A stretch of 24,000 nt of DNA. It comes from Chloroflexota bacterium (lineage in GTDB: Bacteria > Chloroflexota > Anaerolineae > UBA4142). The DNA lies in contig JACQYF010000002.1 in the NCBI GenBank assembly GCA_016208315.1, forward strand, positions 39,820 through 63,819. The letters are read 5' to 3'. The position numbers and the translations under genes were made by a program. Each line of letters opens with the position of its first letter. The stretch's first letter is position 1. The notes below the pieces were generated by a model. It was not told the origin of the DNA, ran no database searches, and saw nothing but the letters and a program-made list of their open reading frames with translations. Shown piece by piece: positions 1,447 to 22,945 of the stretch.

Positions 1447-1501
1447 GTGGGAGTATGGGGGTATGGGAGTGACTCCCATACTCCCATACCTCCATACTCC
1501 A
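1447..1501. repeat. Tandem-octamer hairpin, unit GGGAGTAT (family A, copy 1)
   Basis: Left arm GGGAGTAT GGGGGTAT GGGAG, 3-nt loop (1470-1472), right arm CTCCCATA CTCCCATA CCTCCATA CTCC. The roughly 29-position stem has 2 G-T pairs and about 2 mismatches. It fills the gap between the rtcB stop (1502-1504) and the SD/start of the next gene (1436). Confidence 0.85.
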
Positions 1502-2953
1502 CTACCCCTTGATGACCGCCAATGGCTCCAGCCGCGCGATCTTTTTTGCGATTCCAGCGCGCGACACGACCTCGACCACACGCGATACGTCCTTGTACGC
1601 TTGCGGCGCTTCTTCGGCGAGGCCGGGCATCGAGCCGGCGCGAATGACGATGCCGCGCGCATTCAATTCATCGCGCAGTTTTTCGCCGCGCACTTGTTTC
1701 TTGGCTTGCGAACGGCTCATCACGCGGCCCGCGCCGTGGCACGTCGAGCCGAAGGTTTGCGCCATCGAGCCGGCGGTGCCAACGAGCACGTAGGACGCGG
1801 TGCCCATCGAGCCGGGAATCAGCACCGGCTGGCCGATGTCGCGCAAATCGTCCGGCAGTACGCTCGCGCCGGGGCCGAACGCCCGCGTCGCGCCTTTGCG
1901 ATGCACACACACCTTGACGCGTTGGCCCTCGATGTCGTGCTCCTCGACCTTGCCCATGTTGTGCGCAATGTCGTATACCTGGTGCAGATCGAAATCCTTG
2001 ACCACGCCCGCGAGCGCCTCTTCGAAAGAACGCCGGACGTGGTACGCCAGGATTTGGCGATTGGCAAACGCATAGTTCGCCGCGCACGCCATGGCCTTGA
2101 AATAATTCTGTCCCGCGTTGGAATCGAATGGCGCGCAAACGAGTTCGCGGTCGGGCAATTCGATCTTGTATTCGCGCACGGTCTGCTGAAAGCTGCCGAC
2201 GTAATCCGTGCAGATTTGATGTCCCAACCCGCGCGACCCGCAGTGGATTTGCGCGACGATCTGATCGGGGAACAGGCCGAGGCGGTCCGCAATGTCCGCG
2301 TCATAGACCTCGGCCACGCGGTCTACTTCGATAAAGTGATTGCCCGCGCCCAGCGTGCCGAGTTGGTCCTTGCCGCGTTCCTTGGCGCGCTTGGAGACGA
2401 GCGCCGCGTCGGCCCCGGGCAGCTTGCCGAACTCTTCGGTGCGCTCCAAGTCCGCGCGGCGCGCGTAGCCGTTCTTGACGGCCCATTCCGAACCCTGTTC
2501 CAATACGTCGTCCAGTTGCTTGGGATTCAACGGCACGCTGCCTTCCGAACCGACTCCGCTGGGGCAATTGCGGTAGAGCGCAGTTGCCAAATCCTTCATT
2601 TGCGGCGCCATCTCTTCCACGCGGACGTGCGAGGCGAGGAGGCGGACCCCACAATTGACGTCGTAGCCAATCGCGCCAGGCGAAATAACGCCGCCCGGCA
2701 ATTTGGTCGCGAACACACCTCCCACGGGCGCGCCATATCCTTGGTGTACATCCGGCATCGCAATGGCGTAGCGCACGATACCGGGCAGCGTCGCCGTGTT
2801 CACCAGTTGCTCGACGGACTTGTCTTCGAGCGCATCGTCAAGCAGGGCTTCGTCCGCGTAGATCCGCGCGGGCGCGCGCATGTCGCCGCGGAAATTCTGC
2901 GGCACCTGCCACACGACCTCGTTAATGCGTTCCAGGTCTTGTTTGCGGATCAT
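1502..2953 (-). CDS. rtcB: RNA 3'-phosphate/5'-OH ligase RtcB
   Basis: RtcB signature blocks are present: [78 protein letters not shown]. Start ATG at 2953 ([10 protein letters not shown]) has GAGGA 8 nt upstream. The ORF-track start at 3037 adds an implausible Gly/Arg-rich extension. Confidence 0.93.
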
Positions 2954-2966
2954 CGTACACATCCTC

Positions 2967-3010
2967 GTAGGACAATGCGGCGCCCGCGGCGCCGAGCCAA
3001 ATTGTCCTAC
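2967..3010 (-). promoter_or_regulatory. Compound intercistronic hairpin between archease and rtcB
   Basis: Outer 10-bp perfect stem GTAGGACAAT (2967-2976) / ATTGTCCTAC (3001-3010) encloses an inner 7-bp GC stem CGGCGCC (2978-2984) / GGCGCCG (2988-2994). The outer stem covers the archease stop codon (3007-3009). Its base abuts the rtcB SD (complement of 2962-2966). Confidence 0.5.
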
Positions 3011-3408
3011 ACGTCCACCACAACGACCGCCTCCCATCCCTCGGGCGTTTGCTCGATCTTCAAGTTGTGATACGTCACCGCTTTGACGAGCTTTTCGATT
3101 TTGCCGCCGGGCGAGCCGAAAACCGTCGCGCGCAAGGCGGCGGGAGTGATGGATTCGATTTGAAAACGGTGATACCTCTCGCGGTTGGATTCTTGCAGGT
3201 ACAGCAACTCGCTCAGCCAGTTCACGAGCAGCGCTTCATAGTCTATGCCGTCTACTTGTACCGGGCGCGCGATTTCAGGTTCGGATGCGGTCGCGCCTTC
3301 CATTGAAAACATCGCGAACGCGGCGTTCTCGAACAGGTCGCGCAGGTCGCGGCCGAACGCGCGGAACGACCAATCGGCAGTGTGGGAGATTTCTTCAAAT
3401 CTTTTCAT
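3007..3408 (-). CDS. Archease (RtcB activator/chaperone family)
   Basis: N-terminus [19 protein letters not shown] carries the conserved archease HTAD motif. The size is about 133 aa and the gene lies immediately upstream of rtcB. ATG at 3408 has AAGGA 7 nt upstream; GTG at 3411 is an alternative start. Confidence 0.85.
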
Positions 3409-3424
3409 CACTCATCCTTCATCC

Positions 3425-4348
3425 CTAATCCTTCTTGAGCACTTGGCGCGTTTCGGCCACGTCCTGCCGCATCTGCGCGATGAGCGCCTGGACGTTGTCG
3501 AATTTCATTTCCGGGCGCAGGCGTTTGATGAACTGCACTTCGATGACCTGATCGTACAAGTCGCCGTCAAAGTCCAGCACATACACCTCGACCGTGCGGT
3601 GCCCGCCGCCAAATGTCGGACGGATGCCGATGCTGGCCGCGCCGCCGAACCACTGCTCGCCGATTTTTACGCGCACCGCGTAAATCCCATCCGCGGGAAC
3701 CAACCGCCGTTCGGCCACGGCGAGATTGGCCGTGGGAAATCCGAGTTGGCGGCCGCGCTCGTCGCCTTTGATGACACGCCCGCGCAAAGACGGATAGCGG
3801 CCCAACGAACGCGTCGCGCTCTCCAGGTCTCCTTCCGCGATAGATTGGCGGATGCGCGTAGACGACATGATCTCGCCGTCGAATTTCTGCGGTTCGACGA
3901 CGGTCACGCTGAACCCTTTCTCTTTGCCGAGCGCGCGGAGAAACTCCACGTTGCCCTCGCGCTTATAGCCCATCGCAAAATCCGCGCCGCAAAAGATTTC
4001 TCTCATGTTCAGATGGTCGAGCAAGAGTTGAACGAAATCGCGCGCGCGAATCTGCGACAGTTCGAGACTGAACGGAAAGACGACCGCGTAGTCGAGGCCG
4101 AGCGGGCCCAGAAGGTCGAGCCGCTCTTCGATCGTGCTGAGGTATTGCAGCGGGGAATCGGGACGCAGGACGACTTTGGGATGCGGGTGTAGCGTGACGA
4201 GCGCGCTGGCCGCGCCGGTCTCTTTGGCGCGATGGACGACGCGGCCGATAAGATATTGATGGCCGCGATGAATGCCATCGAAAGAGCCAATCGTAAGCAC
4301 GGTAGGTCGAGTCAGATTAACAGTGGTGAGGTCGCGGATGATTTCCAT
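3425..4348 (-). CDS. ribF: Bifunctional riboflavin kinase / FMN adenylyltransferase
   Basis: The N-terminal block TIGSFDGIHRGHQYLI and a C-terminal riboflavin-kinase region (GDERGRQLGFPTANL...GIYAVRV...GAASIGIRPTF...VEVYVLDF) are present. It sits in the conserved position after truB. Confidence 0.92.
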   Translation of the reverse strand: MEIIRDLTTVNLTRPTVLTIGSFDGIHRGHQYLIGRVVHRAKETGAASALVTLHPHPKVVLRPDSPLQYLSTIEERLDLLGPLGLDYAVVFPFSLELSQIRARDFVQLLLDHLNMREIFCGADFAMGYKREGNVEFLRALGKEKGFSVTVVEPQKFDGEIMSSTRIRQSIAEGDLESATRSLGRYPSLRGRVIKGDERGRQLGFPTANLAVAERRLVPADGIYAVRVKIGEQWFGGAASIGIRPTFGGGHRTVEVYVLDFDGDLYDQVIEVQFIKRLRPEMKFDNVQALIAQMRQDVAETRQVLKKD

Positions 4349-4363
4349 AGGTTCAGCGAGCTG

Positions 4364-4396
4364 CCATGAGTTCCCTTGAGCCGAAGGAACTCATGG
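4364..4396 (-). promoter_or_regulatory. Intercistronic hairpin in the truB-ribF spacer
   Basis: Perfect 11-bp inverted repeat CCATGAGTTCC (4364-4374) / GGAACTCATGG (4386-4396) with an 11-nt loop, inside the 62-nt gap between the truB stop (4411) and ribF start (4348). It has no U-tract and is not periodic. Confidence 0.55.
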
Positions 4397-5298: not shown

Positions 5299-5382
5299 AG
5301 CGCAACCTTGAAAATGGGATTGGGAGATGGATCGCAGCGGACAGTTCTGCGCTCCGCCGCAAGTTGGGCAACTCATGTCAAT

Positions 5383-5478
5383 GAAACAATTATCCAATGA
5401 ACCAATGAGCCAAATTGACTCCGCTGTGGGGAACTTGTTTGGCTCATTGGCTCATTGGCATATTGGACAATTGTTTTC
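5383..5478. repeat. Tandem-octamer hairpin, units CCAATGAR / GGCTCATT (family F)
   Basis: The core is a 13-bp perfect stem, 5402-5414 (CCAATGAGCCAAA) with 5438-5450 (TTTGGCTCATTGG). Further pairing extends out to 5383/5478, with one extra 8-nt unit bulged on the right arm. The right arm reads GGCTCATT GGCTCATT GGCATATT GGACAATT. It overlaps the last 10 codons and the stop of nrnA. Confidence 0.85.
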
Positions 5479-9095: not shown

Positions 9096-9130
9096 GTAAT
9101 CAGTAATTAGTAATTACCAATTACTGACTA
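9096..9130. repeat. Tandem-heptamer hairpin, unit GTAATYA / CCAATTAC (family B, copy 1)
   Basis: Sequence reads GTAATCA GTAATTA GTAATTA CCAATTA CTGACTA. CAGTAATT (9101-9108) pairs perfectly with AATTACTG (9119-9126), and an alternative register is also possible. It lies in the 281-nt untranslated spacer upstream of infB. It shares 13-14-mers with the element at 12142-12189. Confidence 0.75.
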
Positions 9131-9268: not shown

Positions 9269-9583
9269 TCATTCTGTTTTGTTTTGTGGCGCGGTCGTTT
9301 CATGCGCGCGCGGCGGCAGCGTCGCGGTGAACTCGCGCAACCGCGTCAAGTCTTGCTGATCCAGCGGCGTTTCCATCTTCAGGGCGTGTTCGAGACGCCC
9401 GCGACTGCTCAGCGCCTCTTCCCAACACTCGCGCTGGCGGCATAGATACGCGCCGCGTCCGGATTTCTTGCCGGTCGCGTCCGCCTCAACCTTATTGTCC
9501 GCCGTCCGCACGACGCGCACAAGTTCGCGTTTTGCCCGCACCGTGCGACAGGCGATGCACGTGCGCTGGGGAATATGTTTCAT
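9269..9583 (-). CDS. ylxR: YlxR/RnpM-family (DUF448) RNA-binding protein
   Basis: MKHIPQRTCIACRTVRAKRELVRVV...GRGAYLC is the DUF448 signature. It sits in the conserved position between nusA and infB. Confidence 0.85.
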   Translation of the reverse strand: MKHIPQRTCIACRTVRAKRELVRVVRTADNKVEADATGKKSGRGAYLCRQRECWEEALSSRGRLEHALKMETPLDQQDLTRLREFTATLPPRAHETTAPQNKTE

Positions 9584-9659
9584 AGTTGGATAGTTTGCTA
9601 GTTGAATAGTTTCATAGTGTCGTAACTATCAAACTATGAAACTATCCAACTATTCAACT
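9584..9659. repeat. Tandem-octamer hairpin, unit AGTTNNAT (family E)
   Basis: Left arm AGTTGGAT AGTTTGCT AGTTGAAT AGTTTCAT AGT, loop GTCGTA, right arm ACT ATCAAACT ATGAAACT ATCCAACT ATTCAACT. The roughly 35-position stem has about 6 mismatches or wobbles. It occupies the whole spacer from the ylxR start codon (9583) to the nusA stop (9658-9660). Confidence 0.85.
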
Positions 9660-11467: not shown

Positions 11468-12142
11468 ATGTTTGCCAACGTGATTATAGCCGTCGTCAAA
11501 ACGAGCGTCAGGCGACGGATCTGGATACTCCCGCTTTGCGCGCTCGTCGCCCTCTTGGTTGTCGTCGGCGTTCTATACCAACGCGTGGATGCCCAAGCGC
11601 AAATTGACCAAGCGCAACCCGTGGATGCCATCATCGTGCTCGGGTCGGCGGTTCGGCCCAGCGGCCGGGCCAGTCCGTCTCTCAACGCGCGCATACAACA
11701 TGGCATCGCGCTCTACAAGGCGGGTTACGCCTCACACTTGATTCTGACCGGCGGCTTGGGTCAGTATCCGCCGACCGAAGCCGAAGTGATGCGCCGGCTG
11801 GCCGCGGCCGCGGGCGTGCCCGCCGAAGCGATCGTCCTCGAAGACACGTCGCACTCGACGGAGGAACAGCTCACGAATGTCAAGCAGATCATGGGCGCGC
11901 GCGGTTGGCGCAGCGCGTTGATCGTCAGCGATCCCTTCCATCTCTATCGCGCCGACATGATGGCGCGCGACCTGGGCCTCGTGGCCTACGGCTCGCCGGC
12001 GAGCAACAGCCCGACCTACACGGCCCCGCACCTCCGCGTGTGGTACACGACGCGGGAAGCCATCGCCATCCTCTGGTATCAGGCCACGCGCGCGTTCGGT
12101 GAGCCGGCGTGGCTGTACGCGTTGTTGAAAGGTAAAGTGTGA
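11468..12142 (+). CDS. YdcF/ElyC-like DUF218 family protein with an N-terminal membrane anchor
   Basis: AIIVLGSAV...RIQHGIALYKAGYASHLILTGG...TEAEVM...GVPAEAIVLEDTSHSTEEQ...ALIVSDPFHLYRA shows the DUF218 pattern. Confidence 0.8.
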   Translation: MFANVIIAVVKTSVRRRIWILPLCALVALLVVVGVLYQRVDAQAQIDQAQPVDAIIVLGSAVRPSGRASPSLNARIQHGIALYKAGYASHLILTGGLGQYPPTEAEVMRRLAAAAGVPAEAIVLEDTSHSTEEQLTNVKQIMGARGWRSALIVSDPFHLYRADMMARDLGLVAYGSPASNSPTYTAPHLRVWYTTREAIAILWYQATRAFGEPAWLYALLKGKV

Positions 12143-12189
12143 ATTACAGATTACCAATTACTCCTATGGGTAATTAGTAATTGGTAATT
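12142..12189. repeat. Tandem-heptamer hairpin, unit AATTACM / GTAATTR (family B, copy 2)
   Basis: AATTACAGATTACCAATTAC (12142-12161), loop TCCTATGG, then GTAATTAGTAATTGGTAATT (12170-12189). This gives about 20 pairing positions with 2 mismatches and 1 G-T. It starts at the last base of the ydcF-like stop and ends at the SD (GGAGA, 12190-12194) of the next gene. Confidence 0.85.
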
Positions 12190-12198
12190 GGAGATTGT

Positions 12199-13914: not shown

Positions 13915-13969
13915 GTATGGGGGTGTGGGAGTATGGGAGCGCCCCCCACACTCCCACACTCCCATACTC
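13913..13969. repeat. Tandem-octamer hairpin, unit GGGAGTAT/GGGGGTGT (family A, copy 2)
   Basis: 13913-13939 pairs with 13943-13969 over 27 positions (24 Watson-Crick, 1 G-T, 2 mismatches) with loop CGC. It overlaps the TGA of the upstream gene and sits between convergent genes (stops at 13912-13914 and 13979-13981). Confidence 0.88.
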
Positions 13970-14895: not shown

Positions 14896-16647
14896 CTATT
14901 TCCGCCCGAACTCGCGTTCGAGTTGCGCGACGTTCAATTGGATGACGGTCGGGCGGCCGTGCGGGCAAGTACGCGGCGCAGTCGTCTGCTCCAAGCGACG
15001 GACCAACTCGCGCATCTCTTCGAGCGCCAAGACCTGGCCGCCTTTTACCGCGATGCTTTTGCACACGCTCGAAATCAGGCGCGCCTCTGACGTCTTTTCC
15101 AACGGCGCTTCTCCCTGCTCGATCTCATCCAGAATCGCGATGAGCGTTACACTCGGTTCGCCCCTTTTCAGCAGACCGGGCACCGCGCGCAGCAACATCG
15201 TTTGATTGCCGAACGGCTCGATCTTGAAGCCGACCGACGCCAGGGCCTCGCGATTGGCTTGCAGCATGGCGAATTGCGCCAGCGTAAGTTGGATCGGCGC
15301 GGGATCGAGCAGCTCTTGAATCGCAACCTGCGCGCCGGCGCGCTCCGCGGTCAGTTGCTCGTACAAGACGCGCTCGTGCGCGGCGTGTTGGTCAATGAGA
15401 TACAACCCATCGGGCCCTTCGGCGATGATGTAGGTGGAGGCGATTTGGCCGAGGACGCGGAGCATGGGGAGTTTGGGAGGTTGGGAGTATGGGAGTTGGG
15501 AGGTTGGAGGTTGGAAGTTGGAAGTTGGAATGGGGTGGTGGAGGTTGATGGCGAGTTGTGTTTCGCTTGGCGTGGGCGGGAAATCTTGGCGCGGGAAAGG
15601 CGCGCCGACGGTGATGGACGGAATCGGCGCGTTGGCGGTGAGCGCCGCGCGGACCGCGCGCTGCACGGCGTTGAATACCATGCTGGTGTCGCGAAAGCGG
15701 ACCTCGCTCTTTGTCGGATGAACGTTGACATCCACCATATCCGGCGGCACAATCACATCCAACGCGACAATCGGCGCGCGCCCCACCATCAGCGACGTGT
15801 GGTATGCTTCGATGACCGCGTGTTGGAGCGTGCGATCCTGAATCCAGCGATGGTTGACAAAAAAGAGCATGTACTTGCGGTTGCCGCGGTTGACGTTGGG
15901 AGGGGAGACAAAGCCGGTGACTTGGAGGTTAGAAGGTGGAAGTTGGAGGTTGGAATCACTATCCGATTTCCAATTTCCAACTTCCAACATCTGTTTGGCC
16001 GTTTCAATCCCAAACACCTTCACGAGCACGTCGAACATCTTGCCCGTGCCCGGCGATTGGAACGTGAGGCGGTCTTCGTTGACGAGGGAAAAACGCAGGT
16101 GCGGATATGCGAGGGCGTAGGCATTGAGCAGGTCGCCAATATGTCCGGCTTCGGTCGCGGGCATTTTCAGAAATTTGAGGCGCGCGGGGACGTGCCGGAA
16201 CAAATCCTCGACGGTGATGATTGTGCCCGCGGGCGCGCCTTGCGCGTGGTGCTCGGTGATCTTGCTGCCGTCCACCCGAATCTCGGAACCCGATTCTTCG
16301 TCGCGGTCGCGCGTAATCAGCGTGACGCGCGCAACCGCGGCAATCGAGGGCAGCGCCTCGCCGCGAAAGCCGAGCGTCTGGAGCCGAAACAAATCGTCGG
16401 CGGATTCGAGCTTGCTCGTCGCGTGGCGCGCGAACGCGGTCTCGACTTCGGCGGCGGGAATGCCGCAGCCGTTGTCCGCCACGCGGATGAGGCGCTGCCC
16501 GCCGCCGCGCACCTCCACTTTGATCTCAGTCGCGCCCGCGTCAATCGAGTTCTCGATCAGTTCCTTGACGACCGACGCCGGCCGCTCGATCACTTCGCCC
16601 GCGGCGATCTTGGCGGCCAGGTCGTCTGACAGAATATGGATTGCCAT
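14896..16647 (-). CDS. mutL: DNA mismatch repair protein MutL, carrying two internal periodic-repeat segments
   Basis: GHKL ATPase motifs (AAGEVIERPASVVKELIENSIDAGAT, DNGCGI, TLGFRGEALPSI), the transducer region (FVNHRWIQDR) and the C-terminal dimerisation/endonuclease region (LIDQHAAHERVLYE, CPHGRPT) are present. Start ATG at 16647 (MAIHILSDD). The 18 upstream codons of the ORF track come from repeat element C1. Confidence 0.93.
   Translation of the reverse strand: MAIHILSDDLAAKIAAGEVIERPASVVKELIENSIDAGATEIKVEVRGGGQRLIRVADNGCGIPAAEVETAFARHATSKLESADDLFRLQTLGFRGEALPSIAAVARVTLITRDRDEESGSEIRVDGSKITEHHAQGAPAGTIITVEDLFRHVPARLKFLKMPATEAGHIGDLLNAYALAYPHLRFSLVNEDRLTFQSPGTGKMFDVLVKVFGIETAKQMLEVGNWKSDSDSNLQLPPSNLQVTGFVSPPNVNRGNRKYMLFFVNHRWIQDRTLQHAVIEAYHTSLMVGRAPIVALDVIVPPDMVDVNVHPTKSEVRFRDTSMVFNAVQRAVRAALTANAPIPSITVGAPFPRQDFPPTPSETQLAINLHHPIPTSNFQPPTSQLPYSQPPKLPMLRVLGQIASTYIIAEGPDGLYLIDQHAAHERVLYEQLTAERAGAQVAIQELLDPAPIQLTLAQFAMLQANREALASVGFKIEPFGNQTMLLRAVPGLLKRGEPSVTLIAILDEIEQGEAPLEKTSEARLISSVCKSIAVKGGQVLALEEMRELVRRLEQTTAPRTCPHGRPTVIQLNVAQLEREFGRK
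15466..15548. repeat. One-armed heptamer array GTTGGAR/GGGAGTT (family D, copy 1) inside the mutL linker; G-rich on the + strand
   Basis: The + strand reads GGGGAGTTTGGGAGGTTGGGAGTATGGGAGTTGGGAGGTTGGAGGTTGGAAGTTGGAAGTTGGAATGG... It contains exact tandem copies GGTTGGA x2 and AGTTGGA x2 (15502-15529). It also contains the family-A unit GGGAGTAT. mutL translates it as INLHHPIPTSNFQPPTSQLPYSQPPKLP. Confidence 0.85.
15922..15992. repeat. Heptamer hairpin (family D, copy 2) inside the mutL N-terminal domain
   Basis: Left arm TTGGAGG TTAGAAG GTGGAAG TTGGAGG TTGGAA, 12-nt loop (15956-15967), right arm TTCCAAT TTCCAAC TTCCAAC. Positions 15931-15955 pair with 15968-15992 (21 Watson-Crick, 2 G-T, 2 mismatches). 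mutL reads it in frame as EVGNWKSDSDSNLQLPPSNLQ. Confidence 0.88.
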
Positions 16648-16664: not shown

Positions 16665-16782
16665 AAAATTCAAAATTCGTAATTCGTAATTCGTAATTCA
16701 AACCTCTTGGCCTGGGATAGGAATTACGAATTACGAATTACGAATTACGAATTACGAATTACGAATTACGAATTTTGATTTT
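16665..16782. repeat. Large asymmetric heptamer hairpin, unit GTAATTC / GAATTAC (family C, copy 1)
   Basis: Left arm AAAATTC x2 plus GTAATTC x3 (16665-16699), 21-nt loop, right arm GAATTAC x7 plus GAATTTT GATTTT (16721-16782). That is 5 units against 9. It occupies most of the divergent mutL/dehydratase intergenic region. Confidence 0.92.
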
Positions 16783-16800: not shown

Positions 16801-17784
16801 ATGCGTTCGATGATTACGATCCGGGAGATTCTCGAGGCGCAGCGACGGATTCGCCCGCACGTTTTTCGCACGCCGCTGCGCTATTCGTTTTTGCTGAGCG
16901 AACGTATTGGCGCGTCGGTCTTTTTAAAGCTGGAGAACTGGCAGGTGACCGGCTCGTTCAAGCCGCGCGGCGCGCTCAATATGATGGCAATGTTGGACGA
17001 TGCGGAACGCGCGCGCGGCGTGGTGACCGCCAGCGCGGGCAATCACGCGCTCGGCGTCGGCTATGCAGCGCGGCTTCTCAACATCTCGCCGGCGACGATC
17101 TTTGTGCCGCGCACTGCGCCGCGCGCCAAACTGGACAAGCTGCGCGAATTCCCGGTTGACGTGCGAACGGTCGGCGAAACCTACGACGACGCCCATCACG
17201 CGGCCGAAGCGCACCGGCGCGCGACCGGCGCGACGTTCGTGAACGCGTACGACGACCCGCGCACCGTCGCGGGGCAGGCGACGATTGGCTTGGAGATTCT
17301 GGAGGATTTGCCGGACGTGGACGCGATCCTCGTTCCGGTCGGCGGGGGCGGGATGATTGCCGGGATTGCGATTGCGGCCAAAGCGCTCGCGCCCGCGGTC
17401 AAGATCATCGCCGTGCAGCCCGTGGCCTCGCCCGCACTGCGCGATTCCTTGCGCGACGGCAAGTGCTACGAGGAGTATCCCGCTGCGCCGACCATCTGCG
17501 ACGGGCTGGCAGGCGGCATCGGCAAAATCTGTTTCGAGGTCGCGCAAAGGTTGGTGGACGATGTCGTGGTCGTCGAAGAAGACGAAACCAAAACGGCAAT
17601 TCGCGCGCTCGCCGAAACTGAGCAGTTGATCGCGGAGGGGTCGGGCGCGGTAGGCGTTGCGGCGCTGCTTTCGCAGAAGGCGGATTTGGCGGGCAAACTC
17701 GTGGCGGTCGTGCTCAGCGGCGGCAACATTGATCTGGCGCTGCTCGCGCAAATCCTAAATCAGAAATCAGAAATCCTAAATTGA
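16801..17784 (+). CDS. PLP-dependent threonine/serine dehydratase (threonine ammonia-lyase-like, no ACT domain)
   Basis: FLKLENWQVTGSFKPRGALN contains the PLP lysine motif, with ASAGNHALGVGYAA and a GGGGMIAG glycine loop. The start is ambiguous among ATG 16801, ATG 16810 and the TTG 16786 of the ORF track. The last 11 codons and the stop lie in a heptamer array. Confidence 0.85.
   Translation: MRSMITIREILEAQRRIRPHVFRTPLRYSFLLSERIGASVFLKLENWQVTGSFKPRGALNMMAMLDDAERARGVVTASAGNHALGVGYAARLLNISPATIFVPRTAPRAKLDKLREFPVDVRTVGETYDDAHHAAEAHRRATGATFVNAYDDPRTVAGQATIGLEILEDLPDVDAILVPVGGGGMIAGIAIAAKALAPAVKIIAVQPVASPALRDSLRDGKCYEEYPAAPTICDGLAGGIGKICFEVAQRLVDDVVVVEEDETKTAIRALAETEQLIAEGSGAVGVAALLSQKADLAGKLVAVVLSGGNIDLALLAQILNQKSEILN
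17750..17784. repeat. One-armed heptamer array AAATCCT AAATCAG AAATCAG AAATCCT AAATTGA (family H)
   Basis: Five direct 7-nt units with no complementary arm nearby. They encode QILNQKSEILN plus the TGA of the dehydratase. They also contain the overlapping TTG (17781) used as the eamA-family start. Confidence 0.8.
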
Positions 17785-18689
17785 GCACGCGCCCCTATCT
17801 CGTTCTCGCCCTCGGCATCGTCGCCGTCTCGTCGTCCGCGTTCCTGATCACGTTTGCGCGTCAGGAGGGCGTACCTGCCGTCGCGATTGCCGCGCTCCGG
17901 CTTTCGTTCGCCTCCCTCGTCCTCGCGCCGATCGCCGTCACGCGCGCGCGGGACGAATGGCGGCGGCTTGCGCCGCGCGACCTGGCGTTGGCGATTGCTT
18001 CGGGTTTTCTGCTCGCGCTTCATTTCGCCTTTTGGATCAGCTCGCTCGACTATACTTCTGTGATGAGTTCGATCGTCCTGGTCAGCACGAACCCATTTTT
18101 CGTCGCGCTAGCGTCGGTCTGGCTCCTGCGCGAGTCGTTACATCGCGGAACGGTCGTCGGGATTCTCATTGCAGTCGCCGGGGGCGCGCTGGTCGCGTTG
18201 ACGGATTTGGGCCAGGGCGGGACCGAGTCCCTGCAAGGCGATGCGCTGGCGGTCGCGGGCGCGGTGACCGTGTCCGGGTATTTGGTCATCGGACGCGTCT
18301 TGCGAAGGAAACTGTCGCTCGTCGGCTACATCGGCTTGGTCTATTCGACCGCGGCGATCGTGTTGCTCGTGTTGGCGTGGGTGATGAACGCGCGGCTCAC
18401 CGGTTATTCGACCAAGAGCTATGCGCTGATCGTCCTCCTCGCCGCAGGCCCCCAATTAATCGGCCATTCGGCGTATAATTGGGCGCTGAAATATGTCTCG
18501 GCCACCTTCGTCACGATCACGGTGCTCGCCGAACCGATTGGCGCGACGCTGCTCGCGATTCCCATTCTCGCTCAGGTGCCTCCGCCGATCAAACTCATCG
18601 GCGGCGCGCTGATTCTGGTGGGGATTTACTTTGCGGCGCGACAGGAAGCGGTAAGCAGTGAACAGTCAACAGTCAACAGTGGACAGTGA
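17781..18689 (+). CDS. EamA/DMT-family transporter
   Basis: A protein of about 10 predicted hydrophobic helices with two EamA-like halves (LALGIVAVSSSAFLI..., ...LAAGPQLIGHSAYNWALKYVSATFVTI). TTG at 17781 is the only start candidate and overlaps the upstream TGA (TTGA). The C-terminal SSEQSTVNSGQ plus stop is encoded by repeat element G. Confidence 0.8.
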   Translation: MSTRPYLVLALGIVAVSSSAFLITFARQEGVPAVAIAALRLSFASLVLAPIAVTRARDEWRRLAPRDLALAIASGFLLALHFAFWISSLDYTSVMSSIVLVSTNPFFVALASVWLLRESLHRGTVVGILIAVAGGALVALTDLGQGGTESLQGDALAVAGAVTVSGYLVIGRVLRRKLSLVGYIGLVYSTAAIVLLVLAWVMNARLTGYSTKSYALIVLLAAGPQLIGHSAYNWALKYVSATFVTITVLAEPIGATLLAIPILAQVPPPIKLIGGALILVGIYFAARQEAVSSEQSTVNSGQ

Positions 18690-18758
18690 ACAGTGAACAG
18701 TTAACGGCGAATACGGACCAGCGAATACTGTTTACTGTACACTGTTGACTGTTGACTG
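18656..18758. repeat. Asymmetric heptamer hairpin, unit CAGTSAA / CTGTTGA (family G)
   Basis: Left arm CAGTGAA CAGTCAA CAGTCAA CAGTGGA CAGTGAA CAGTGAA CAGTTAA (18656-18704). The spacer carries GCGAATA twice. Right arm CTGTTTA CTGTACA CTGTTGA CTGTTGA CTG (18728-18758). That is 7 units against 4. Best register is 18663-18694 with 18727-18758 (2 non-Watson-Crick positions). Confidence 0.9.
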
Positions 18759-19409
18759 ATGAGTACCATGCTCAAATATCTTCTCTTCGATCTAGACGAT
18801 ACGCTCTACTCGACGTCCGCGGGGCTGATGGAGGAAATCAGCGTGCGGATGAACGAGTACATGATGACGCGCGTCGGCGTGCCCGAGAGCGAGGTCGCGG
18901 AACTGCGGCAGTTCTATTGGCGCAAATACGGCACGACGCTGCGCGGTTTGTATATCGAACGGCAGATTGACGCGCAAGAGTTTTTGGAATTCGTTCACGA
19001 CATTGAGATCGCCAAGTACATTGCAACCGACCCGCGGCTCGACGCGATGCTGACGCAGCTCGCGCGGCACAAGTTCATATTCACCAACGCGCCGGCGAGT
19101 CACGCGCGCCGCGTCCTCGCCGCGCTCGGCATCGCCAAACATTTCGAGCGGATATTCGACATCAACTTTATCGCCTACGAGAGCAAGCCGACGCCGTCGG
19201 GCTATGCCAAAGTGTTGTCGGCTTTGGGCGCGCGCGGCGACGAATGCCTGATGATTGACGATACCGCGCGCAACCTCGTCCCCGCGAAAGCATTGGGCAT
19301 GCGCACGGTCTGGCTGGACGGCAACCATGATCCCCGCACGGCGGAAGGGTGCGAGAGCGCCGACGCGGTGATTCATACGATTTACGAGGTGGAGAAAATG
19401 TTCCATTGA
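18759..19409 (+). CDS. HAD-superfamily hydrolase, pyrimidine 5'-nucleotidase (SDT1-like) type
   Basis: HAD motif I LLFDLDDTLY is present, with FTNA and a distal IDD motif. The ATG at 18759 immediately follows repeat element G; ATG 18768 is an alternative. Confidence 0.82.
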   Translation: MSTMLKYLLFDLDDTLYSTSAGLMEEISVRMNEYMMTRVGVPESEVAELRQFYWRKYGTTLRGLYIERQIDAQEFLEFVHDIEIAKYIATDPRLDAMLTQLARHKFIFTNAPASHARRVLAALGIAKHFERIFDINFIAYESKPTPSGYAKVLSALGARGDECLMIDDTARNLVPAKALGMRTVWLDGNHDPRTAEGCESADAVIHTIYEVEKMFH

Positions 19410-19496: not shown

Positions 19497-20621
19497 TTGA
19501 TCTATGGTCTGCAGGGCGCGGTGCTGCCGCAGTTGAGAGATGACCTCGCTCTGAGCTATACGGAGGTCGGCTTACTGTTTACCGTGCCGGGACTGATCGG
19601 AATCGTCGGCGAGCCGTTCATCGGTCTCCTGGCCGACACGCGCCACCGCCGCGCGCTGGTCGTAGGCGGCATCACGGCGACTGCGTTCGGGCTGCTGCTC
19701 ACGGGCATCGGGCAATCGTTAGCGGTCATGCTGGTCGCGTTCAGCGTCTTGTACGTCGCGAGCGGCGCATACGTAACGCTCGCCCAAGCCACGCTGATTG
19801 ATCGCAACCCGACGCGGGCCGAACAGACGATGGCGCGTTGGACGCTGTTGGGCAGCATCGGCGTGACCGTCGCGCCGCTAGTCGTCACCGCGTTGTTTTT
19901 CTTGGGCTATGGCTGGCGCGGTTTGTATTTGGGTCTGGCGGGCGTCGCCGGAATTTACACCGCGCTATTGCTGCGCCAGCGTTTCGACGCGCACGCCGGC
20001 GCGGACAAACATATCGCCCCGCGCGAAATGTTCGCGAACCTGATCGCCGCGCTGAAAACGCGCGAGCTGCTGCGCTGGGTTGCGCTTACGGAACTTGCCG
20101 ACCTGATGCTCGACAAGTTGCTCGAAGTGACCGGGCTGTACTTTGCCGACGTGGTCGGCGTCGGCGTGGCCGCGGCCAGCGGCGCGATTGCGGTCCTGAC
20201 GATTGCCGGCCTTGTCGGCGATGCGCTGCTCGTGCCCGCGCTCGAACGCGTCAGTGGGCTGCGAATCCTGCGCGTGACCGCAGTGGTCGTGCTCGTCGGC
20301 TATGTCGCATTCTTGCTCGTGCCGGTCGTCTGGCTCAAGTTCGCTTTGATCGGCGCGATCGGCTTTTGTACGGCGGGGTGGTACGCCGTCCTGGCCGGCA
20401 GAACGTACGCGGTGTTGCCGAAGCAATCAGGTCTGATCGTGTCGGTTTCGGCGTTGGGCAACGTCTCGAGCGTCCTTGTGCCCTTCGTCATTGGTCGAAT
20501 TGCGGACACGTTTGGATTAGAGTGGGCGATGTGGCTGCTGGCGCTCGGACCAGTCGCGCTGATCGTCGGATTGCCGCGGGAAGGGAATGCGGAAAGGTGC
20601 GAAAACATCTCACCGTTCTAA
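19497..20621 (+). CDS. MFS transporter; the true start is probably upstream of the listed TTG
   Basis: The MFS loop motif GLLADTRHRR follows TM2, and multiple hydrophobic helices are present. The hydrophobic segment expected to be TM1 (AALFLFALYGVELLDELIYG) is encoded in frame at 19446-19505, upstream of the TTG at 19497. No ATG, GTG or TTG occurs between 19410 and 19496. Confidence 0.75.
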   Translation: MIYGLQGAVLPQLRDDLALSYTEVGLLFTVPGLIGIVGEPFIGLLADTRHRRALVVGGITATAFGLLLTGIGQSLAVMLVAFSVLYVASGAYVTLAQATLIDRNPTRAEQTMARWTLLGSIGVTVAPLVVTALFFLGYGWRGLYLGLAGVAGIYTALLLRQRFDAHAGADKHIAPREMFANLIAALKTRELLRWVALTELADLMLDKLLEVTGLYFADVVGVGVAAASGAIAVLTIAGLVGDALLVPALERVSGLRILRVTAVVVLVGYVAFLLVPVVWLKFALIGAIGFCTAGWYAVLAGRTYAVLPKQSGLIVSVSALGNVSSVLVPFVIGRIADTFGLEWAMWLLALGPVALIVGLPREGNAERCENISPF

Positions 20622-22945
20622 CGCTATACATCCTCATCGCACTCGTCCTGTCGTGGCCGCTGGCGCTGAATTTCGCGTCGGCGATTCCGGGCGTGGAGGG
20701 CGACGCGGCGAGTTTCGTGTGGGCGATGGGCTGGGCCAAGACCGCGCTTGCGGATCTGCGCGTCAACCCATTCCACACCGACTATGTTTTCTATCCGCTC
20801 GGCGGCGCGACGCAACTGCTCTGGGCGACGTCGCTTGTCGGCTTGGTCTCGATTCCGCTGCAATACGTCTTCGGCTTGATCGTCACCTACAACCTTTTGT
20901 ACCTCGCGGCGACGGTGCTGACGGCGTATGGGACGTTTCTACTTGCGGAATTCGTAATTCGTAATTCGGAATTCAGAATTATGAATTATGAATTCGATCA
21001 AACGCCACTGCCACCGCTTGCCACCGTTCTCCTGACGCAGTTCATAACGCAGAACCGCAAACTCGCCACCCGACACTCGTCACTTGGCCCTTTTGTTGCG
21101 GGACTCGTATTTGCGTTTGCGCCGCTGCGGCAGGGGTATGGGCTGGCGTTCTTCAATCTGTTCCATACCGAGCTGATTCCATTCTACTTGCTCTTTTTGC
21201 TCCGCGCCGCGCATGAGAAATCGTGGCGGTTGGCGATTCTGGCAGGCGTGTTTCTCGGTTTGAATACGTACATTGATTTCCAGATCGCCGCGTTTTTGAT
21301 CTTGTTGACGGGCGTGTTCGTGGCTAAAGACCCGAAGGGTTTACCAAAAACCCGTCGGGTCTGGGCGACCACGGCGCTTACCTCGCTGATGATCGCCATC
21401 CCCATCCTCCTCGCCGTTGCGAACGATTTTGCGGTTGAAGGCGGCAACTACATTCGCGTGTACAAGCTCGATTATTCTGCGGCGCGCTCTTACGATCTGC
21501 TGTCGTTCTTTGTGCCCAATGCGCGGAGCACGCTCTATGCCGATTCGCCGCTCAAGATTGCGAACGTCAACGCGGCGGTCCAAGCCCAGGATGAAAGTGC
21601 GCTCTCACCCGACCGCCAACCGTTTGTCGGCTATATCGTGCTCGCGCTGGCGGCGTTCGCCGTTGCCCGGCGGTGGCGGCAAGCGCGGTTCTGGCTTGTC
21701 GTGGCTGGCTTGTTCGCGCTTTTCAGTTTGGGCCCGTCGCTCCACATTTTCGGACGCGAGACTGGAATTCCGCTCCCGTTTCTCGCGCTGCACGAAATCC
21801 CCATCGTCAACCACATTCGCATTCCGATGCGGTATGGCATCATCGTGCCGCTCGCGCTGGCGATGCTGGTGGCGATGGCAATTGACAACTTGCAACGGAC
21901 AATTGACAAGTGGAGGTTGGAAGTTAGAAGTTGGAGGTTGGAAGCTGGACGTTGGAAATGGCGTGACGTGCTGCGGATTCGCTTGGCGAGTTTGGCGCTG
22001 GCGCTCGTTCCCGTTGGCATCTTGGTCGAATTTGCGGTGCTGCCGTATCCGGCGCAGCCGGTGACGATTCCGCGCGTGTATGCGGCGATTGCGCGCGAGC
22101 CGGGCGATTTTACTATCTTGGAGATTCCCACCTTCCATTGGCGCGGCGCGGCGGCCGCAGAACTCTATCAGCCGATCCATGGCAAGCGCATCTTGCGCGC
22201 CTACACCAATCGCATCGCGCCGGGACTCGCGGAGTATTTCGGCTATCGCGGCACGCCGATTGTCGTCCGGTCGCTCCGCGTGCTGGAGGGCGCGGAGCAG
22301 GGCGAGCTGGCGCCGGACGACATTGCCGAGGACAAGCGCGTCCGCGATCAAGTCGTTCAATTCTTCAATCTGCGCTACGCGCTCCTCCACCGTTCGTACC
22401 TCAAGCCGAACGAGGTCGGCGCGATTGACCGCTACCTGCGCGACGTTCTCGGCGCGCGGCTGATTGACGACGACGGTCAAGTCATCGCGTACCAAATTCC
22501 GCCGACGACGAGCGTTCCGGAGGTCATCGCGATTGATCTGCGCGAGAACATTGGACAGATGTACGCGGGGCGCGGCTGGCAGTTCGAATACCCGCCCGCG
22601 AACTGGAACGACGAATTCAATTTCGTGTGGGCGCGCGGCGCGCGGTCGGAGATCTATTTTGTCGCGGGCGACGCGGCGGAACGCGTGGTGACGCTGCACG
22701 CGCGCGCCGAATCGCCGCAGCGCGTGAATGTCTATCTGAACGATCAGCCGGTCGGCGAAATCGCTCTGACGACCGAATGGCGAGACCACGAGATCGCGCT
22801 GCCCGCGCGCGCGGTTGTATCGGGCATGAACCGGTTGACGTTGGATTACGGAGGCGAGTTCGAGGAGACGGTCGCGGTAACGATCATCCAGATTCGGCAA
22901 ATTGACATTCGGCGAGGAAATCATGGAACCCAAACCAGTCGTTGA
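20597..22945 (+). CDS. Large polytopic membrane protein, putative GT-C-type glycosyltransferase (YfhO/ArnT-like), with a C-terminal soluble domain and three internal repeat/hairpin segments
   Basis: A continuous 782-codon frame begins at the in-frame GTG at 20597 (VRKHLTVLTLYILIALVLSWPL), with GGGAAGGGA upstream. It has many hydrophobic helices and a beta-rich C-terminus. The upstream 253 codons of the 1035-aa ORF overlap the MFS gene in another frame and look spurious. The function call is from general architecture only. Confidence 0.7.
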   Translation: MRKHLTVLTLYILIALVLSWPLALNFASAIPGVEGDAASFVWAMGWAKTALADLRVNPFHTDYVFYPLGGATQLLWATSLVGLVSIPLQYVFGLIVTYNLLYLAATVLTAYGTFLLAEFVIRNSEFRIMNYEFDQTPLPPLATVLLTQFITQNRKLATRHSSLGPFVAGLVFAFAPLRQGYGLAFFNLFHTELIPFYLLFLLRAAHEKSWRLAILAGVFLGLNTYIDFQIAAFLILLTGVFVAKDPKGLPKTRRVWATTALTSLMIAIPILLAVANDFAVEGGNYIRVYKLDYSAARSYDLLSFFVPNARSTLYADSPLKIANVNAAVQAQDESALSPDRQPFVGYIVLALAAFAVARRWRQARFWLVVAGLFALFSLGPSLHIFGRETGIPLPFLALHEIPIVNHIRIPMRYGIIVPLALAMLVAMAIDNLQRTIDKWRLEVRSWRLEAGRWKWRDVLRIRLASLALALVPVGILVEFAVLPYPAQPVTIPRVYAAIAREPGDFTILEIPTFHWRGAAAAELYQPIHGKRILRAYTNRIAPGLAEYFGYRGTPIVVRSLRVLEGAEQGELAPDDIAEDKRVRDQVVQFFNLRYALLHRSYLKPNEVGAIDRYLRDVLGARLIDDDGQVIAYQIPPTTSVPEVIAIDLRENIGQMYAGRGWQFEYPPANWNDEFNFVWARGARSEIYFVAGDAAERVVTLHARAESPQRVNVYLNDQPVGEIALTTEWRDHEIALPARAVVSGMNRLTLDYGGEFEETVAVTIIQIRQIDIRRGNHGTQTSR
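20948..20995. repeat. 48-nt heptamer hairpin (family C, copy 2) exactly in frame inside the membrane-protein CDS
   Basis: Sequence reads GAATTCG TAATTCG TAATTCG GAATTCA GAATTAT GAATTAT GAATTC. Positions 20948-20967 pair with 20976-20995 over 20 bp (18 Watson-Crick plus 2 G-T on the sense strand) with an 8-nt loop. It starts at codon position 1 and encodes 16 aa, EFVIRNSEFRIMNYEF. Confidence 0.9.
21328..21362. repeat. Non-periodic 15-bp hairpin inside the membrane-protein CDS
   Basis: AGACCCGAAGGGTTT (21328-21342) / AAACCCGTCGGGTCT (21348-21362) pair at 14 of 15 positions with a 5-nt loop. It is translated as KDPKGLPKTRRV in a predicted loop between hydrophobic segments. Confidence 0.75.
21910..21958. 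repeat. One-armed heptamer array TTGGARG (family D, copy 3) inside the membrane-protein CDS
   Basis: Sequence reads GTGGAGG TTGGAAG TTAGAAG TTGGAGG TTGGAAG CTGGACG TTGGAAA. It is translated as KWRLEVRSWRLEAGRWKW. It is near-identical in unit content to 15922-15955 in mutL. It is preceded by a 10-nt direct repeat of CAATTGACAA (21880-21889 and 21900-21909). Confidence 0.85.

Follow-up and report, generated by a model that had tools for sequence, protein, structure and literature searches.

Tandem 7–8-nt units arranged as direct and inverted arrays at gene junctions and inside genes of a Chloroflexota bacterium

Genes and periodic arrays of the window

This study deals with arrays of 7- and 8-nt units repeated head to tail in a stretch of 24,000 nt from a Chloroflexota bacterium (assembly GCA_016208315.1, contig JACQYF010000002.1, positions 39,820–63,819 of the forward strand), which as a whole is further called the window. 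Its genes were mapped on the basis of Pfam matches and the codon-position GC signature (GC3). The minus-strand string contains nusA, ylxR, infB, an rbfA-like gene, a gene of the DHH family, truB, ribF, a small open reading frame (ORF), rtcB and another ORF; DUF218 and DUF6909 genes are located on the plus strand, mutL together with a LiaF-like gene on the minus strand, and the genes of a PALP enzyme, of EamA, HAD and MFS proteins and of an 811-aa-type membrane protein again on the plus strand. MutL of the window is identical to protein P0001 (“MAG: Chloroflexi bacterium”), and its nearest relatives come from metagenome-assembled genomes of Anaerolineae/Chloroflexota.

By a uniform rule (period 6–9, at least 2.5 copies) 25 arrays were counted in the window as compared to 0.82 in 50 block shuffles, i.e. 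an approximately 30-fold enrichment, and strict inverted pairs numbered 6 against 0 in 50 block shuffles. The arrays merge into 14 clusters, which occupy 953 nt or 4.0% of the window. Tandem Repeats Finder gave periods of 7 and 8 nt and copy numbers from 2.6 to 8.3 and confirmed every site listed in a preceding sequence-only reading of this DNA, even if its title counted 15 sites and its list contained 13 intervals; arrays TTCATCC (3404–3434) and CAATTGA (21879–21909) had been missed there, the latter adjoining the listed site at 21910. According to the inverted-repeat finder most arrays are paired with an array of the reverse-complement unit 1–56 nt away, and 11 of the 14 sites fold as hairpins, ten of them with z-scores (z) from −3.4 to −9.1 and folding free energies (dG) from −17 to −54.5 kcal/mol, none of 200 shuffles being as stable. 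One hairpin, at 9096–9130, is weak (z −2.1), and three sites (15466–15548, 17750–17784 and 3404–3434) appeared single-arm and unstructured in folding against shuffles. Both approaches agree with the initial observation that an array followed by its reverse complement is found at most sites.

The pooled GC content of the arrays is 0.41 versus 0.605 for the window, and no U-tract follows the hairpins on either strand (at most 5 T in the next 10 nt, usually 0–4), just as the AT-rich units had been described before. The terminator scan recovered no periodic hairpin, save an inner loop fragment at 5419–5431. No transposase domain was found in any Pfam-scanned ORF of the window and flanking direct repeats did not exceed the chance level (best mean 1.2 nt versus 1.7 nt at random positions), which is what had been noticed by eye for target duplications and a nearby transposase. 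The GTAG/CGTC tag was present at only 1 of 10 hairpins, and Rfam gave 0 matches at the gathering threshold for both strands of the 24 kb.

Ten of the 14 clusters fall into intergenic or gene-end sequence, which makes up 7.4% of the window, and 8 of these 10 arrays are inverted pairs. The other four clusters (two in mutL and two in the membrane-protein gene) are intragenic and in frame, the long conserved reading frames remaining uninterrupted. At the junctions inspected closely (rtcB/next gene, nusA/ylxR, DUF218/DUF6909 and DUF6909/LiaF-like) the stems adjoin a stop codon, a Shine-Dalgarno sequence or a start codon. Coordinates and folding parameters are collected in Table 1.

Two assemblies of one relative (loci L081 and L082) are 99.9% identical and differ by 5 single-nucleotide polymorphisms with zero indels in arrays. 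Since the arrays are base-for-base equal in these independent assemblies, they are not an assembly artefact, which the sequence-only reading had left as a possibility. Strain-level hypermutability of the contingency-locus type is ruled out by the same comparison. Thus, we consider it highly probable that the window carries 7–8-nt tandem arrays, usually an array plus its reverse complement with periodic stems of 20–35 bp, which are specific for an uncultured Anaerolineae-like clade, turn over fast and are of one kind with the short tandemly repeated repetitive (STRR) sequences of cyanobacteria and the heptamer repeats of Xanthomonas and Beggiatoaceae.

Table 1. Array sites of the window and the genes hosting in-frame arrays (dG in kcal/mol; z relative to shuffles)
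Feature	Coordinates	Strand	Position and remarks	Folding
Hairpin, ~3 GGGAGTAT units in 5' arm and ~3 ATACTCCC units in 3' arm	1448..1500		rtcB/next gene	dG −41.7, z −5.7
Single-arm TTCATCC array	3404..3434		overlaps ribF stop (3425)	unstructured, z −1.5
Hairpin CCAATGAR / YTCATTGG (8-nt unit)	5379..5478		DHH-family gene/truB	dG −42.8, z −5.9
Short hairpin GTAATYA / CCAATTAC	9096..9130		ylxR-infB spacer	dG −8.8, z −2.1 (weak)
Hairpin with AGTTNNAT units (8-nt)	9577..9659		entire gap from nusA stop (9658) to ylxR ATG (9583)	dG −32.1, z −7.3
Hairpin AATTACN / GTAATTR	12142..12191		DUF218 stop (12142) to GGAG and ATG (~12199) of DUF6909	dG −17, z −3.7
Hairpin GGGAGTRT / AYACTCCC	13913..13969		between convergent stops of DUF6909 (13914) and LiaF-like gene (13979)	dG −52, z −8.8
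mutL, host of two in-frame arrays	14896..16647	−	real start ATG 16647; Pfam, identity to P0001, alignments	
Single-arm mixed array in mutL linker, plus-strand units GGGAGTT, GGGAGGTT, GGGAGTAT, GGAGGTT, GGAAGTT	15467..15548	in − strand gene	mutL linker	unstructured
mutL loop hairpin TTGGARG / YTTCCAA	15922..15992	in − strand gene	surface-loop insert …GNWKSDSDSNLQLPPSNLQ after conserved QMLEV	dG −34.3, z −5.7
Largest hairpin, 5 GTAATTC-type versus 10 GAATTAC units	16665..16782		between divergent core promoters of mutL and PALP	dG −45, z −9.1
Single-arm AAATCMK array	17750..17784	+	C-terminus of PALP enzyme, overlaps EamA start; conserved in L081	unstructured
Hairpin CAGTSAA / ACTGTTN	18656..18762		EamA/HAD	dG −54.5, z −8.5
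811-aa-type membrane-protein gene, host of two in-frame arrays	20597..22945	+	no Pfam match; GC3 signature	
Self-complementary GAATTCG/GAATTAT array	20946..20996	+	in frame (EFVIRNSEFRIMNYEF)	dG −24.9, z −6.2
CAATTGA array, then GTTGGAR array	21879..21958	+	in frame (…NLQRTIDKWRLEVRSWRLEAGRWKW…)	weak hairpin, dG −22.5, z −3.4

Array slots in related loci and inside genes

Sampling of Chloroflexota was centred on mutL. The scan of the genome collection gave MutL identities of at most 53% among the matches listed, and closer relatives were reached via the protein database. Eight syntenic loci of the same clade with MutL 73–87% identical to that of the window (BLASTP) were used for comparison, and in the MAFFT alignment of five syntenic loci the pairwise identity of MutL ranged from 75 to 89%. 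In the window and its closest relative L081 most shared junctions carry arrays with differing units. Thus, after the DHH-family gene CCAATGAR of the window corresponds to CAATTAGT in L081, and between DUF218 and DUF6909 the 7-nt unit GTAATTR corresponds to 8-nt CAATGAGC, which is the unit of the window's own DHH junction; such differences at most shared junctions were registered between genomes with 87–89% identical MutL. In array-poor relatives ordinary hairpins, some of them with U-tracts, are present at the LiaF/DUF6909, DUF6909/DUF218 and ylxR/infB junctions. This comparison gives direct evidence that a slot is conserved while its unit is replaced, and that a periodic hairpin and an ordinary terminator can substitute for each other.

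The density of arrays is 4.6–7.9 per 10 kb in the window, L081, L083, L085 and L002, and L086 is array-rich as well, with 13 arrays in 21.8 kb by the listing of Tandem Repeats Finder. Array-poor are L084 (<1 per 10 kb), L087 and L088 (3–4 arrays each), although they stand just as near to the window, and in 58 of the 85 loci arrays are missing altogether. Of the assemblies concerned, the source genome of the window, ERZ13693045, GCA_016219275.1, GCA_041643115.1 and GCA_020723345.1 were classed as array-rich, and GCA_040961345.1, GCA_037440625.1 and GCA_037444225.1 as array-poor.

At particular junctions the following arrangement was observed. The hairpin of rtcB is placed between its stop (1502–1504, minus strand) and the Shine-Dalgarno sequence AGGTG with ATG (1436) of the next minus-strand gene, so that the order is rtcB stop, hairpin, 6 nt, AGGTG, ATG. 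The stop of the DHH-family gene (5444) is within one arm of its hairpin, and hairpins of CCAATGAR units, with the polarity seen in the window, occupy another junction in L081 as well as in L088. Between nusA and ylxR the order is TAG, a 74-nt hairpin and ATG, the same gap having 9 nt in L081 and 10–25 nt in L084 and L087, while L086 has gained there a different nested hairpin of 199 nt (L086:17240–17438). In this palindrome periodic 8-mer arms are outside and two further unrelated hairpins are within the loop, so that hairpin tips may be places where new palindromic DNA builds up. Between DUF218 and DUF6909 the place of the array found in the window and L081 is taken by ordinary hairpins in L085 and L088 and by 8–10-nt gaps in L086 and L087. 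The junction of DUF6909 with the LiaF-like gene is a terminator slot: canonical terminators with U-tracts are found there in L085 and L087 and a plain hairpin in L084. The stop of EamA (18689) lies within the 5' arm of the downstream hairpin, and ATG of HAD (18759 or 18768) directly follows its 3' arm; in relatives this junction contains CAGTAWT-type arrays (L081), TTCCYTCA (L085), a non-periodic palindrome (L083) or a 4-nt overlap of the two genes (L084).

Between the divergent mutL and PALP genes the same unit, GTAATTC, is present in L085, other units are used by L081 and L083, and little or nothing of the array is present in L084, L087 and L088. The last degenerate units of this hairpin supply the −35-like TTGATT of PALP. 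On the mutL side (16648–16670) the promoter reads TGATACAAT, 7 nt, ATG, and on the PALP side (16783–16815) TATAGAAT, ~8 nt, ATG. Both −10 boxes are conserved in relatives and the sequence between them is replaced by arrays. Judged by these distances, the two genes look leaderless or nearly so.

In the spacer of ylxR and infB the point of the weak hairpin at 9096 has conserved flanks and is occupied by a CAGTWWT hairpin in L081 and by an ordinary GC hairpin in L084. The blocks around it (8988–9268, minus strand) are conserved in the window, L081, L084, L086 and L087 and include GATGAACGCYTRA…GCGTCCAT and the GAAAGGAG Shine-Dalgarno region; they gave no Rfam match, and their conservation suggests that the spacer may serve as an infB leader or a regulatory RNA.

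A second, non-periodic palindromic element (GTCATTGCGAGC…AAGCAATC…GATTGC…CGCAATGAC) was noticed in slots of periodic hairpins (L083:7834–7952; L087 and L088:11807–11910). It is also present in the MutL loop of proteins P0028, P0044, P0049 and P0064, being translated there as “VIASEAKQSP” or “LSAAKNL…LRSAQGD”. Since this element uses the same junction slots and the same loop of MutL, the slots may be considered as hot spots for several kinds of palindromic DNA. The gap between PALP and EamA in L085 contains a cassette (6220–8885) which resembles a diversity-generating retroelement, with an RVT_1 reverse transcriptase, the accessory protein bAvd and a TIR/FGE-sulfatase protein; it is absent from the window, where PALP and EamA overlap by 4 nt.

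Consensus intrinsic terminators are fewer than expected at positions 1–20000 of the window (16 versus 26.6 ± 5.4 in shuffles). This deficit suggests that the organism makes little use of canonical termination by a hairpin plus U-tract.

Since several units are free of stop codons, the mechanical list of ORFs extends mutL, the DUF6909 gene, the LiaF-like gene and ORF 471–1502 into or across arrays (16648–16701, 12181–12198, 15065–14882 and 1437–1502, respectively). Automatic annotation of such genomes will likewise over-extend both N- and C-termini, which has a practical consequence, as spurious termini appear in the annotation of metagenome-assembled genomes.

Arrays inside genes proved to be read as protein. 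In MutL the array at 15467–15548 encodes a part of the linker between N- and C-terminal domains, rich in Pro, Thr, Ser, Asn and Gln, and the linkers of 45 homologues consist of repeats of the PTSNLQ/NYPTTQ type. On the plus strand, antisense to mutL, positions 15467–15514 contain at least five G3–4 tracts 4–5 nt apart, so that a G-quadruplex could arise in the strand that does not code for the linker. The second array of mutL follows the conserved QMLEV, and there dozens of homologues have repeats of GNWKLE type and then of PTSNLQ type, which correspond to both arms, TTGGAAG and CTTCCAA, translated in one frame. The insert is clade-wide and variable in copy number; some homologues do not have it, and some have a different palindromic element in its place. 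Since tandem repeats cannot be aligned unambiguously, co-variation of the arms was judged by folding in each lineage. In array-rich lineages the insert folds with z of −6.3 (L081), −4.7 (L083) and −6.0 (L085), and in distant L002, where the unit is an 8-mer, with z of −11. As folding is retained with differing units, the arms co-vary in a coding context. The inserts of array-poor L084 and L087 do not fold; thus, the mutL arms are no longer complementary in lineages that have few arrays overall.

The membrane-protein gene is 78% identical to its L081 orthologue over 810 aa (tblastn). Its first array (20948–20995) folds because the GAATTC core is self-complementary, and variant units occur there exactly where a pure GTAATTC array would put an in-frame TAA. 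At the place of its second pair of arrays (21879–21958) the orthologue has (TTGGAAG)9. Only units without a stop codon in any phase of either strand, GTTGGAR and GGGAGTT, occur as intragenic hairpins. An assumption that arrays serve as stop-codon traps was ruled out, as neither GGGAGTAT nor GTTGGAR contains a stop in any of the six frames. In relative L085 a periodic hairpin TGGTAAT/TTCCAAC (20393–20455, z −4.6) is located inside the reading frame of mutS (18385–20979); together with the mutL inserts this means that both mismatch-repair genes carry periodic hairpins in the clade. Thus, in housekeeping proteins (MutL, MutS of L085 and the membrane protein) both arms of a periodic hairpin contribute to the coding sequence of loops and linkers.

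The sequence-only reading had proposed punctuation of polycistronic mRNAs as the role of the elements. Given the four intragenic sites and the divergent promoter region filled with an array, this role cannot be general; for hairpins at operon-internal junctions it is a plausible candidate role.

Unit repertoire and polarity

The window contains at least 8 types of units, 7 and 8 nt long and mostly AT-rich. They had been thought to be unrelated in sequence, which did not stand closer inspection: the array at 15466–15548 passes through GGGAGTTT, GGGAGGTT, GGGAGTAT, GGGAGTT, GGAGGTT and GGAAGTT, so that the GGGAGTAT and GTTGGAR types are joined by 1-nt steps, including the change of period between 7 and 8. 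Types GTAATTC, GTAATTR and CAGTAAT are likewise linked by small steps. The other part of the same claim, that many units share one architecture and do not represent a single mobile sequence, was upheld, as loops and flanks differ between copies with the same unit. Shared units of the window are GTAATTN (4 sites), GTTGGAR (3) and GGGAGTAT (3), and the GTTGGAA class was found in 5 loci; (GTTGGAA)4 had no match among the viral contigs searched. Of six published heptamer classes, three are present in the data set (CAACAGT in the window, GGGGATT in L003, TAACTGA in L047), the number expected by chance being ~0.3 with 63 of 1172 possible classes observed, and classes CCCCAGT, TTGGTCA and GGGAATC are in none of the loci. 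The parallel with STRR drawn from sequence thus gained from the recurrence of published classes, and a sequence check agrees that CAGTCAA of the window is a circular permutation of CAACAGT.

Beyond the window arrays were found in sister genomes, in other Anaerolineae and, for one unit, in two other phyla, as a wider scan was expected to reveal. The metagenome scan for (GGGAGTAT)2.6 gave at least 120 stretches on contigs of two GC groups. One of the low-GC contigs belongs to Chitinophagaceae, and one of the high-GC contigs to Armatimonadota; the latter has a hairpin resembling those of the window, located between pcrA and its neighbour. In low-GC loci of the Chitinophagaceae type (L096, L091 and others of L089–L208) the GGGAGTAT arrays are mostly single-arm, both arms being present in 9 of 56 among the matches listed; these loci have heptamer hairpins of their own (TTAATTG, TAACGCC and AAAGCCT classes) and 4.7 arrays per 10 kb overall.

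The order of the arms was found to be non-random. The reverse complement of a hairpin with the G-rich arm at the 5' side (G-first) is again G-first, therefore G-first and C-first hairpins are physically different arrangements, and both could be found by the scan, which covered both strands. Nevertheless, all 36 of 36 hairpins of the GGGAGTAT type among the matches listed were G-first (p ~3e-11), including contigs of Chloroflexota, Armatimonadota and Bacteroidota type. In other unit classes 21 of 22 further members share the polarity of their class. Polarity is also fixed in classes with the C-richer sense at the 5' side (TAACGCC, 4 to 0; CCAATGAG, 3 to 0). Among 20 classes, 18 of them non-neutral, the 5' arm is richer in G than in C in 15, and the opposite holds for 3 (p 0.008). 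Purine- or keto-richness of the 5' arm was tried as the rule of polarity and rejected, since it performed worse than G over C and was contradicted by CCAATGAG and TAACGCC. The loops are different at every copy (GAC, CGCCCC, AGCCTTTGC, ATCGC, GTGTTCTCT, up to ~40 nt). Thus, polarity is fixed for each unit across at least three phyla, and any model of origin must account for this strand-independent rule.

Possible origin and relation to known repeats

Most likely the arrays represent a structured filler that takes over the slots of ordinary junction stem-loops. The corresponding scheme has three steps. At the step of seeding, units from a limited repertoire with fixed polarity would be copied into places where a hairpin is present or can be tolerated. 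Such places are the few bases that separate a stop codon from the following Shine-Dalgarno sequence or start codon, terminator positions of convergent gene pairs, regions flanked by two divergent core promoters and, in proteins, linkers or surface loops. The agent responsible would leave no target duplication and carry no conserved loop. At the step of local dynamics, slippage would alter the copy number, point changes and 1-nt indels would shift the unit, including transitions between periods 7 and 8, and templated correction from arm to arm would keep the arms complementary, so that with the loss of the maintaining process the array would decay. At the last step the element would act as a generic and very stable stem-loop in place of an ordinary junction hairpin or terminator. 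It may be tolerated in operons as it folds out, so that the stop codon again comes close to the Shine-Dalgarno sequence or start codon, and within genes only units free of stops on both strands would survive, being read as flexible loop or linker peptides. The step of local dynamics is supported by mixed-unit arrays, by unequal arms (5 versus 10 units) and by the perfection of loop-proximal units, as at 16665 and 5383 the inner units are perfect and the outer ones degenerate. Taken as a whole, this scheme is tentative and falls somewhat short of being probable.

Several points weigh against it. No copying agent came to light: the window encodes neither a transposase or REP-associated tyrosine transposase (RAYT) nor a reverse transcriptase, and it lacks target duplications and end tags. 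Loops and flanks of hairpins with the same unit are unrelated, which is unexpected if whole hairpins are copied. The nusA/ylxR spacer of L081 (AGTTAGTTGACTTGT) resembles a proto-repeat of AGTTNNAT of the window, and orthologous arrays often share a core (ATTGG at DUF218/DUF6909, CAGT at EamA/HAD); both facts favour local origin over import. Fixed polarity could result from selection or from sense-specific synthesis instead of inheritance, and its counts (36/36 and 21/22) may be inflated, as part of the metagenome contigs could represent orthologous regions from related strains. Correction between arms, the folding-out argument and any role at the RNA level are inferences, and the term “genome-wide” is an extrapolation from mutL-centred regions.

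There is a possibility, rather unlikely in our opinion, that the hairpins were selected for a function in RNA, as U-tract-independent and perhaps bidirectional terminators or pause sites, as RNase III sites, or as protective stem-loops at 3'-ends that set the relative stability of operon segments, which develops the idea of punctuation. The nusA-infB operon of E. coli is processed by RNase III. Hairpins in slots where relatives have ordinary terminators or hairpins, stems of 20–35 bp with dG from −32 to −54 kcal/mol beside stop codons, the lack of enrichment in canonical terminators (16 versus 26.6 expected) and retention of structure while the sequence changes are all in line with such a function. 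However, five arrays, four of them hairpins, are found inside the co-directional string of essential genes from nusA to rtcB, where strong termination would be harmful; the nusA/ylxR hairpin is missing from three close relatives; four arrays are intragenic, one is in the divergent promoter region and single-arm arrays exist; and array-poor sister lineages manage without arrays.

Purely local origin is a slightly weaker candidate and also appears unlikely. In this case a short local seed, often at an existing junction hairpin, would expand by slippage and give an inverted pair via template switching, with no transfer between sites; shared units would reflect mutational or compositional preference for AT- or G-rich 7–8-mers, whose loop-outs are too long for mismatch repair. 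A proto-repeat AGTTAGTTGA in the “empty” nusA/ylxR spacer of L081, common cores of orthologous arrays differing in unit and period, unique loops and flanks with no target duplications, and gradual drift within mixed-unit arrays are easily explained in this way, and over-representation of heptamers has been ascribed to polymerase slippage (PMC4692102). Symmetric processes should, however, yield both polarities, while the observed one is fixed in each class, and they hardly account for an identical 8-mer in three phyla and at several sites within 24 kb or for a more than 5-fold gap in array density between sister lineages of similar GC and gene content.

Non-autonomous mobile hairpins related in type to repetitive extragenic palindromic (REP) elements and their paired form REPIN, to miniature inverted-repeat transposable elements (MITE) or to Rickettsia palindromic elements (RPE), where each unit class is moved in trans by a structure-specific enzyme encoded elsewhere, seem improbable. 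Hairpins with the same unit and similar arm length at unlinked sites, polarity fixed as though inherited, occurrence in several phyla with lineage-specific density, and the unrelated palindromic element that hits the mutL loop and several junctions, as well as the nested hairpins of L086, could be taken as signs of mobility. It is opposed by the absence of any conserved loop, core or termini, of target duplications and of GTAG/CGTC tags, by the continuous drift of unit, period and copy number in place, and by the fact that neither the window nor the gene tables of related loci, ~170 kb in all, revealed a transposase or RAYT.

Fixed polarity, the G-rich arm being 5' on both strands, unrelated loops, unequal arms and perfect loop-proximal units look like two repeat tracts synthesised outward-in on both 3' ends left by a nick or break, then joined head to head like a fused telomere. 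This version is doubtful and has only a small chance to be correct. If true, it would mean that a trans-acting sense-specific activity builds and maintains the hairpins, which may be an enzyme adding repeats, similar to a reverse transcriptase or primase-polymerase, or a cycle of a hairpin-specific nuclease and polymerase. Such an activity, kept in array-rich lineages and lost in array-poor sisters, would explain bacterial heptamer repeats and would be shared or transferred among Chloroflexota, Armatimonadota, Bacteroidota, cyanobacteria and Xanthomonas. Heptamer arrays of bacteria have been known since 1990 and used for strain typing; as close array-rich and array-poor genomes are available in public assemblies, the question of what makes them becomes testable by profiling of gene presence and absence.

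It is very unlikely that the arrays are a platform for a DNA- or RNA-binding protein with a 7-nt footprint (nucleoid, UP-element-like, cold-shock or S1-type) which regulates the neighbours. AT-rich arrays directly upstream of two divergent core promoters fit this version, and similar speculation was published for heptamers of Nostoc and Beggiatoaceae, but many units are found at equivalent positions and are swapped between close relatives with gene order and flanks unchanged, arrays are also present in coding loops, and the hairpin layout is not needed for binding to an array. The chance that we deal with an assembly artefact or random low-complexity sequence is negligible: the source is a metagenome-assembled genome and short repeats may mislead assemblers, but the arrays exceed shuffles 30-fold, are met again at orthologous positions in data from independent projects, coincide fully between two independent assemblies and preserve the long ORFs of mutL and the membrane protein.

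The structured filler, which remains the preferred interpretation, can be compared with several known systems. Like intrinsic terminators, the hairpins are stable stem-loops right after stop codons, and the one between DUF6909 and LiaF stands where relatives have canonical terminators; unlike terminators, they have no U-tract, their stems are much longer and AT-rich, and several of them are inside an operon or genes. REP elements, known from E. coli and Pseudomonas, have a conserved palindrome including loop or foot, a GTAG/CGTC tag and a cognate RAYT, and they stabilise upstream mRNA. Together with bacterial interspersed mosaic elements (BIME) and REPIN they share with the arrays the position of short extragenic palindromes at operon junctions, strong stem-loops without U-tracts and lineage-specific abundance, but periodic arms, unrelated loops and the lack of tags distinguish the elements described here. 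No RAYT was found in the window or in the gene tables of related loci, and the signatures of MITE and REP were rejected, as there is no target duplication and no conserved loop or flank, and the tag occurs at 1 of 10 hairpins. RPE are 100–150 nt long, have a family consensus, are specific for Rickettsia and are not built of tandem oligomers. In-frame palindromic insertion into conserved ORFs (the mutL loop, the linker and two sites of the membrane protein) is similar to RPE in behaviour, which does not mean membership; the host is a member of Chloroflexota and the inserts are tandem oligomers.

STRR heptamers are reportedly known from heterocystous cyanobacteria since the work of Mazel and co-workers in 1990, who are said to have described CAACAGT as one of the units. 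STRR are dispersed tandem heptamers of several unit types, mostly intergenic, which were defined in AT-rich Nostocales and form mainly direct arrays. With them the arrays share head-to-tail 7-nt units, dispersed and mostly intergenic location, CAGTCAA at 18656 as a permutation of CAACAGT and GGGGATT in L003; unlike STRR, here the hairpin layout is the rule in intergenic regions, 8-nt units are as common as 7-nt ones and the host belongs to Chloroflexota. STRR heptamers of cyanobacteria are used for fingerprinting (PMC5088731). TAACTGA repeats of Beggiatoaceae, cyanobacteria and Bacteroidetes are intergenic and end at or near start codons, a few of them being in frame in a stop-free orientation (MacGregor 2015, PMC4679880); the Beggiatoaceae genome has 169 direct sets and only one inverted, and a single unit dominates there (PMC4679880). 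Intergenic and sometimes in-frame location and patchy distribution across phyla are common to both cases, and (TAACTGA)n itself was found in Chloroflexota locus L047, but in the window many units coexist and 8 of 10 intergenic or gene-end arrays are inverted.

No catalogued family with a known transposase was recognised in the elements, and the architecture itself has been documented for one unit in Xanthomonas (PMC4692102), which is the closest analogue. GGGAATC arrays of Xanthomonas are 89–93% intergenic, located near ORF ends, and 70–75 pairs of an array with its complement are able to form a stem-loop (Rehm et al. 2015, PMC4692102); the single or paired type is preserved between species while the length varies, and the unit was studied as a G-quadruplex former (PMC4692102). 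An array followed by its reverse complement near the ORF end is the same arrangement as in the window, and “convergent orientation” of those pairs corresponds to the G-first geometry described above. Unlike Xanthomonas with its one G-rich unit, the window has at least 8 units of 7 or 8 nt, mostly AT-rich in a GC-rich genome of another phylum, units turn over between close relatives, and hairpins are found in frame inside housekeeping genes.

In the literature searched nothing links heptamer arrays with Chloroflexi, no paper mentions GGGAGTAT or GTTGGAA arrays and none contains two of the window's units, most of which appear unpublished. As far as this literature shows, the occurrence in Chloroflexota and Armatimonadota, the coexistence of 7- and 8-nt units with the hairpin form as the rule, the turnover of units at conserved slots and their interchange with ordinary terminators, the arm-co-varying inserts encoded by hairpins in MutL (and in MutS of L085), and the polarity rule for each unit across phyla are new. 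The arrays of the window are a multi-unit, hairpin-dominated variant of heptamer arrays of the STRR type, and their 8-nt units extend the definition.

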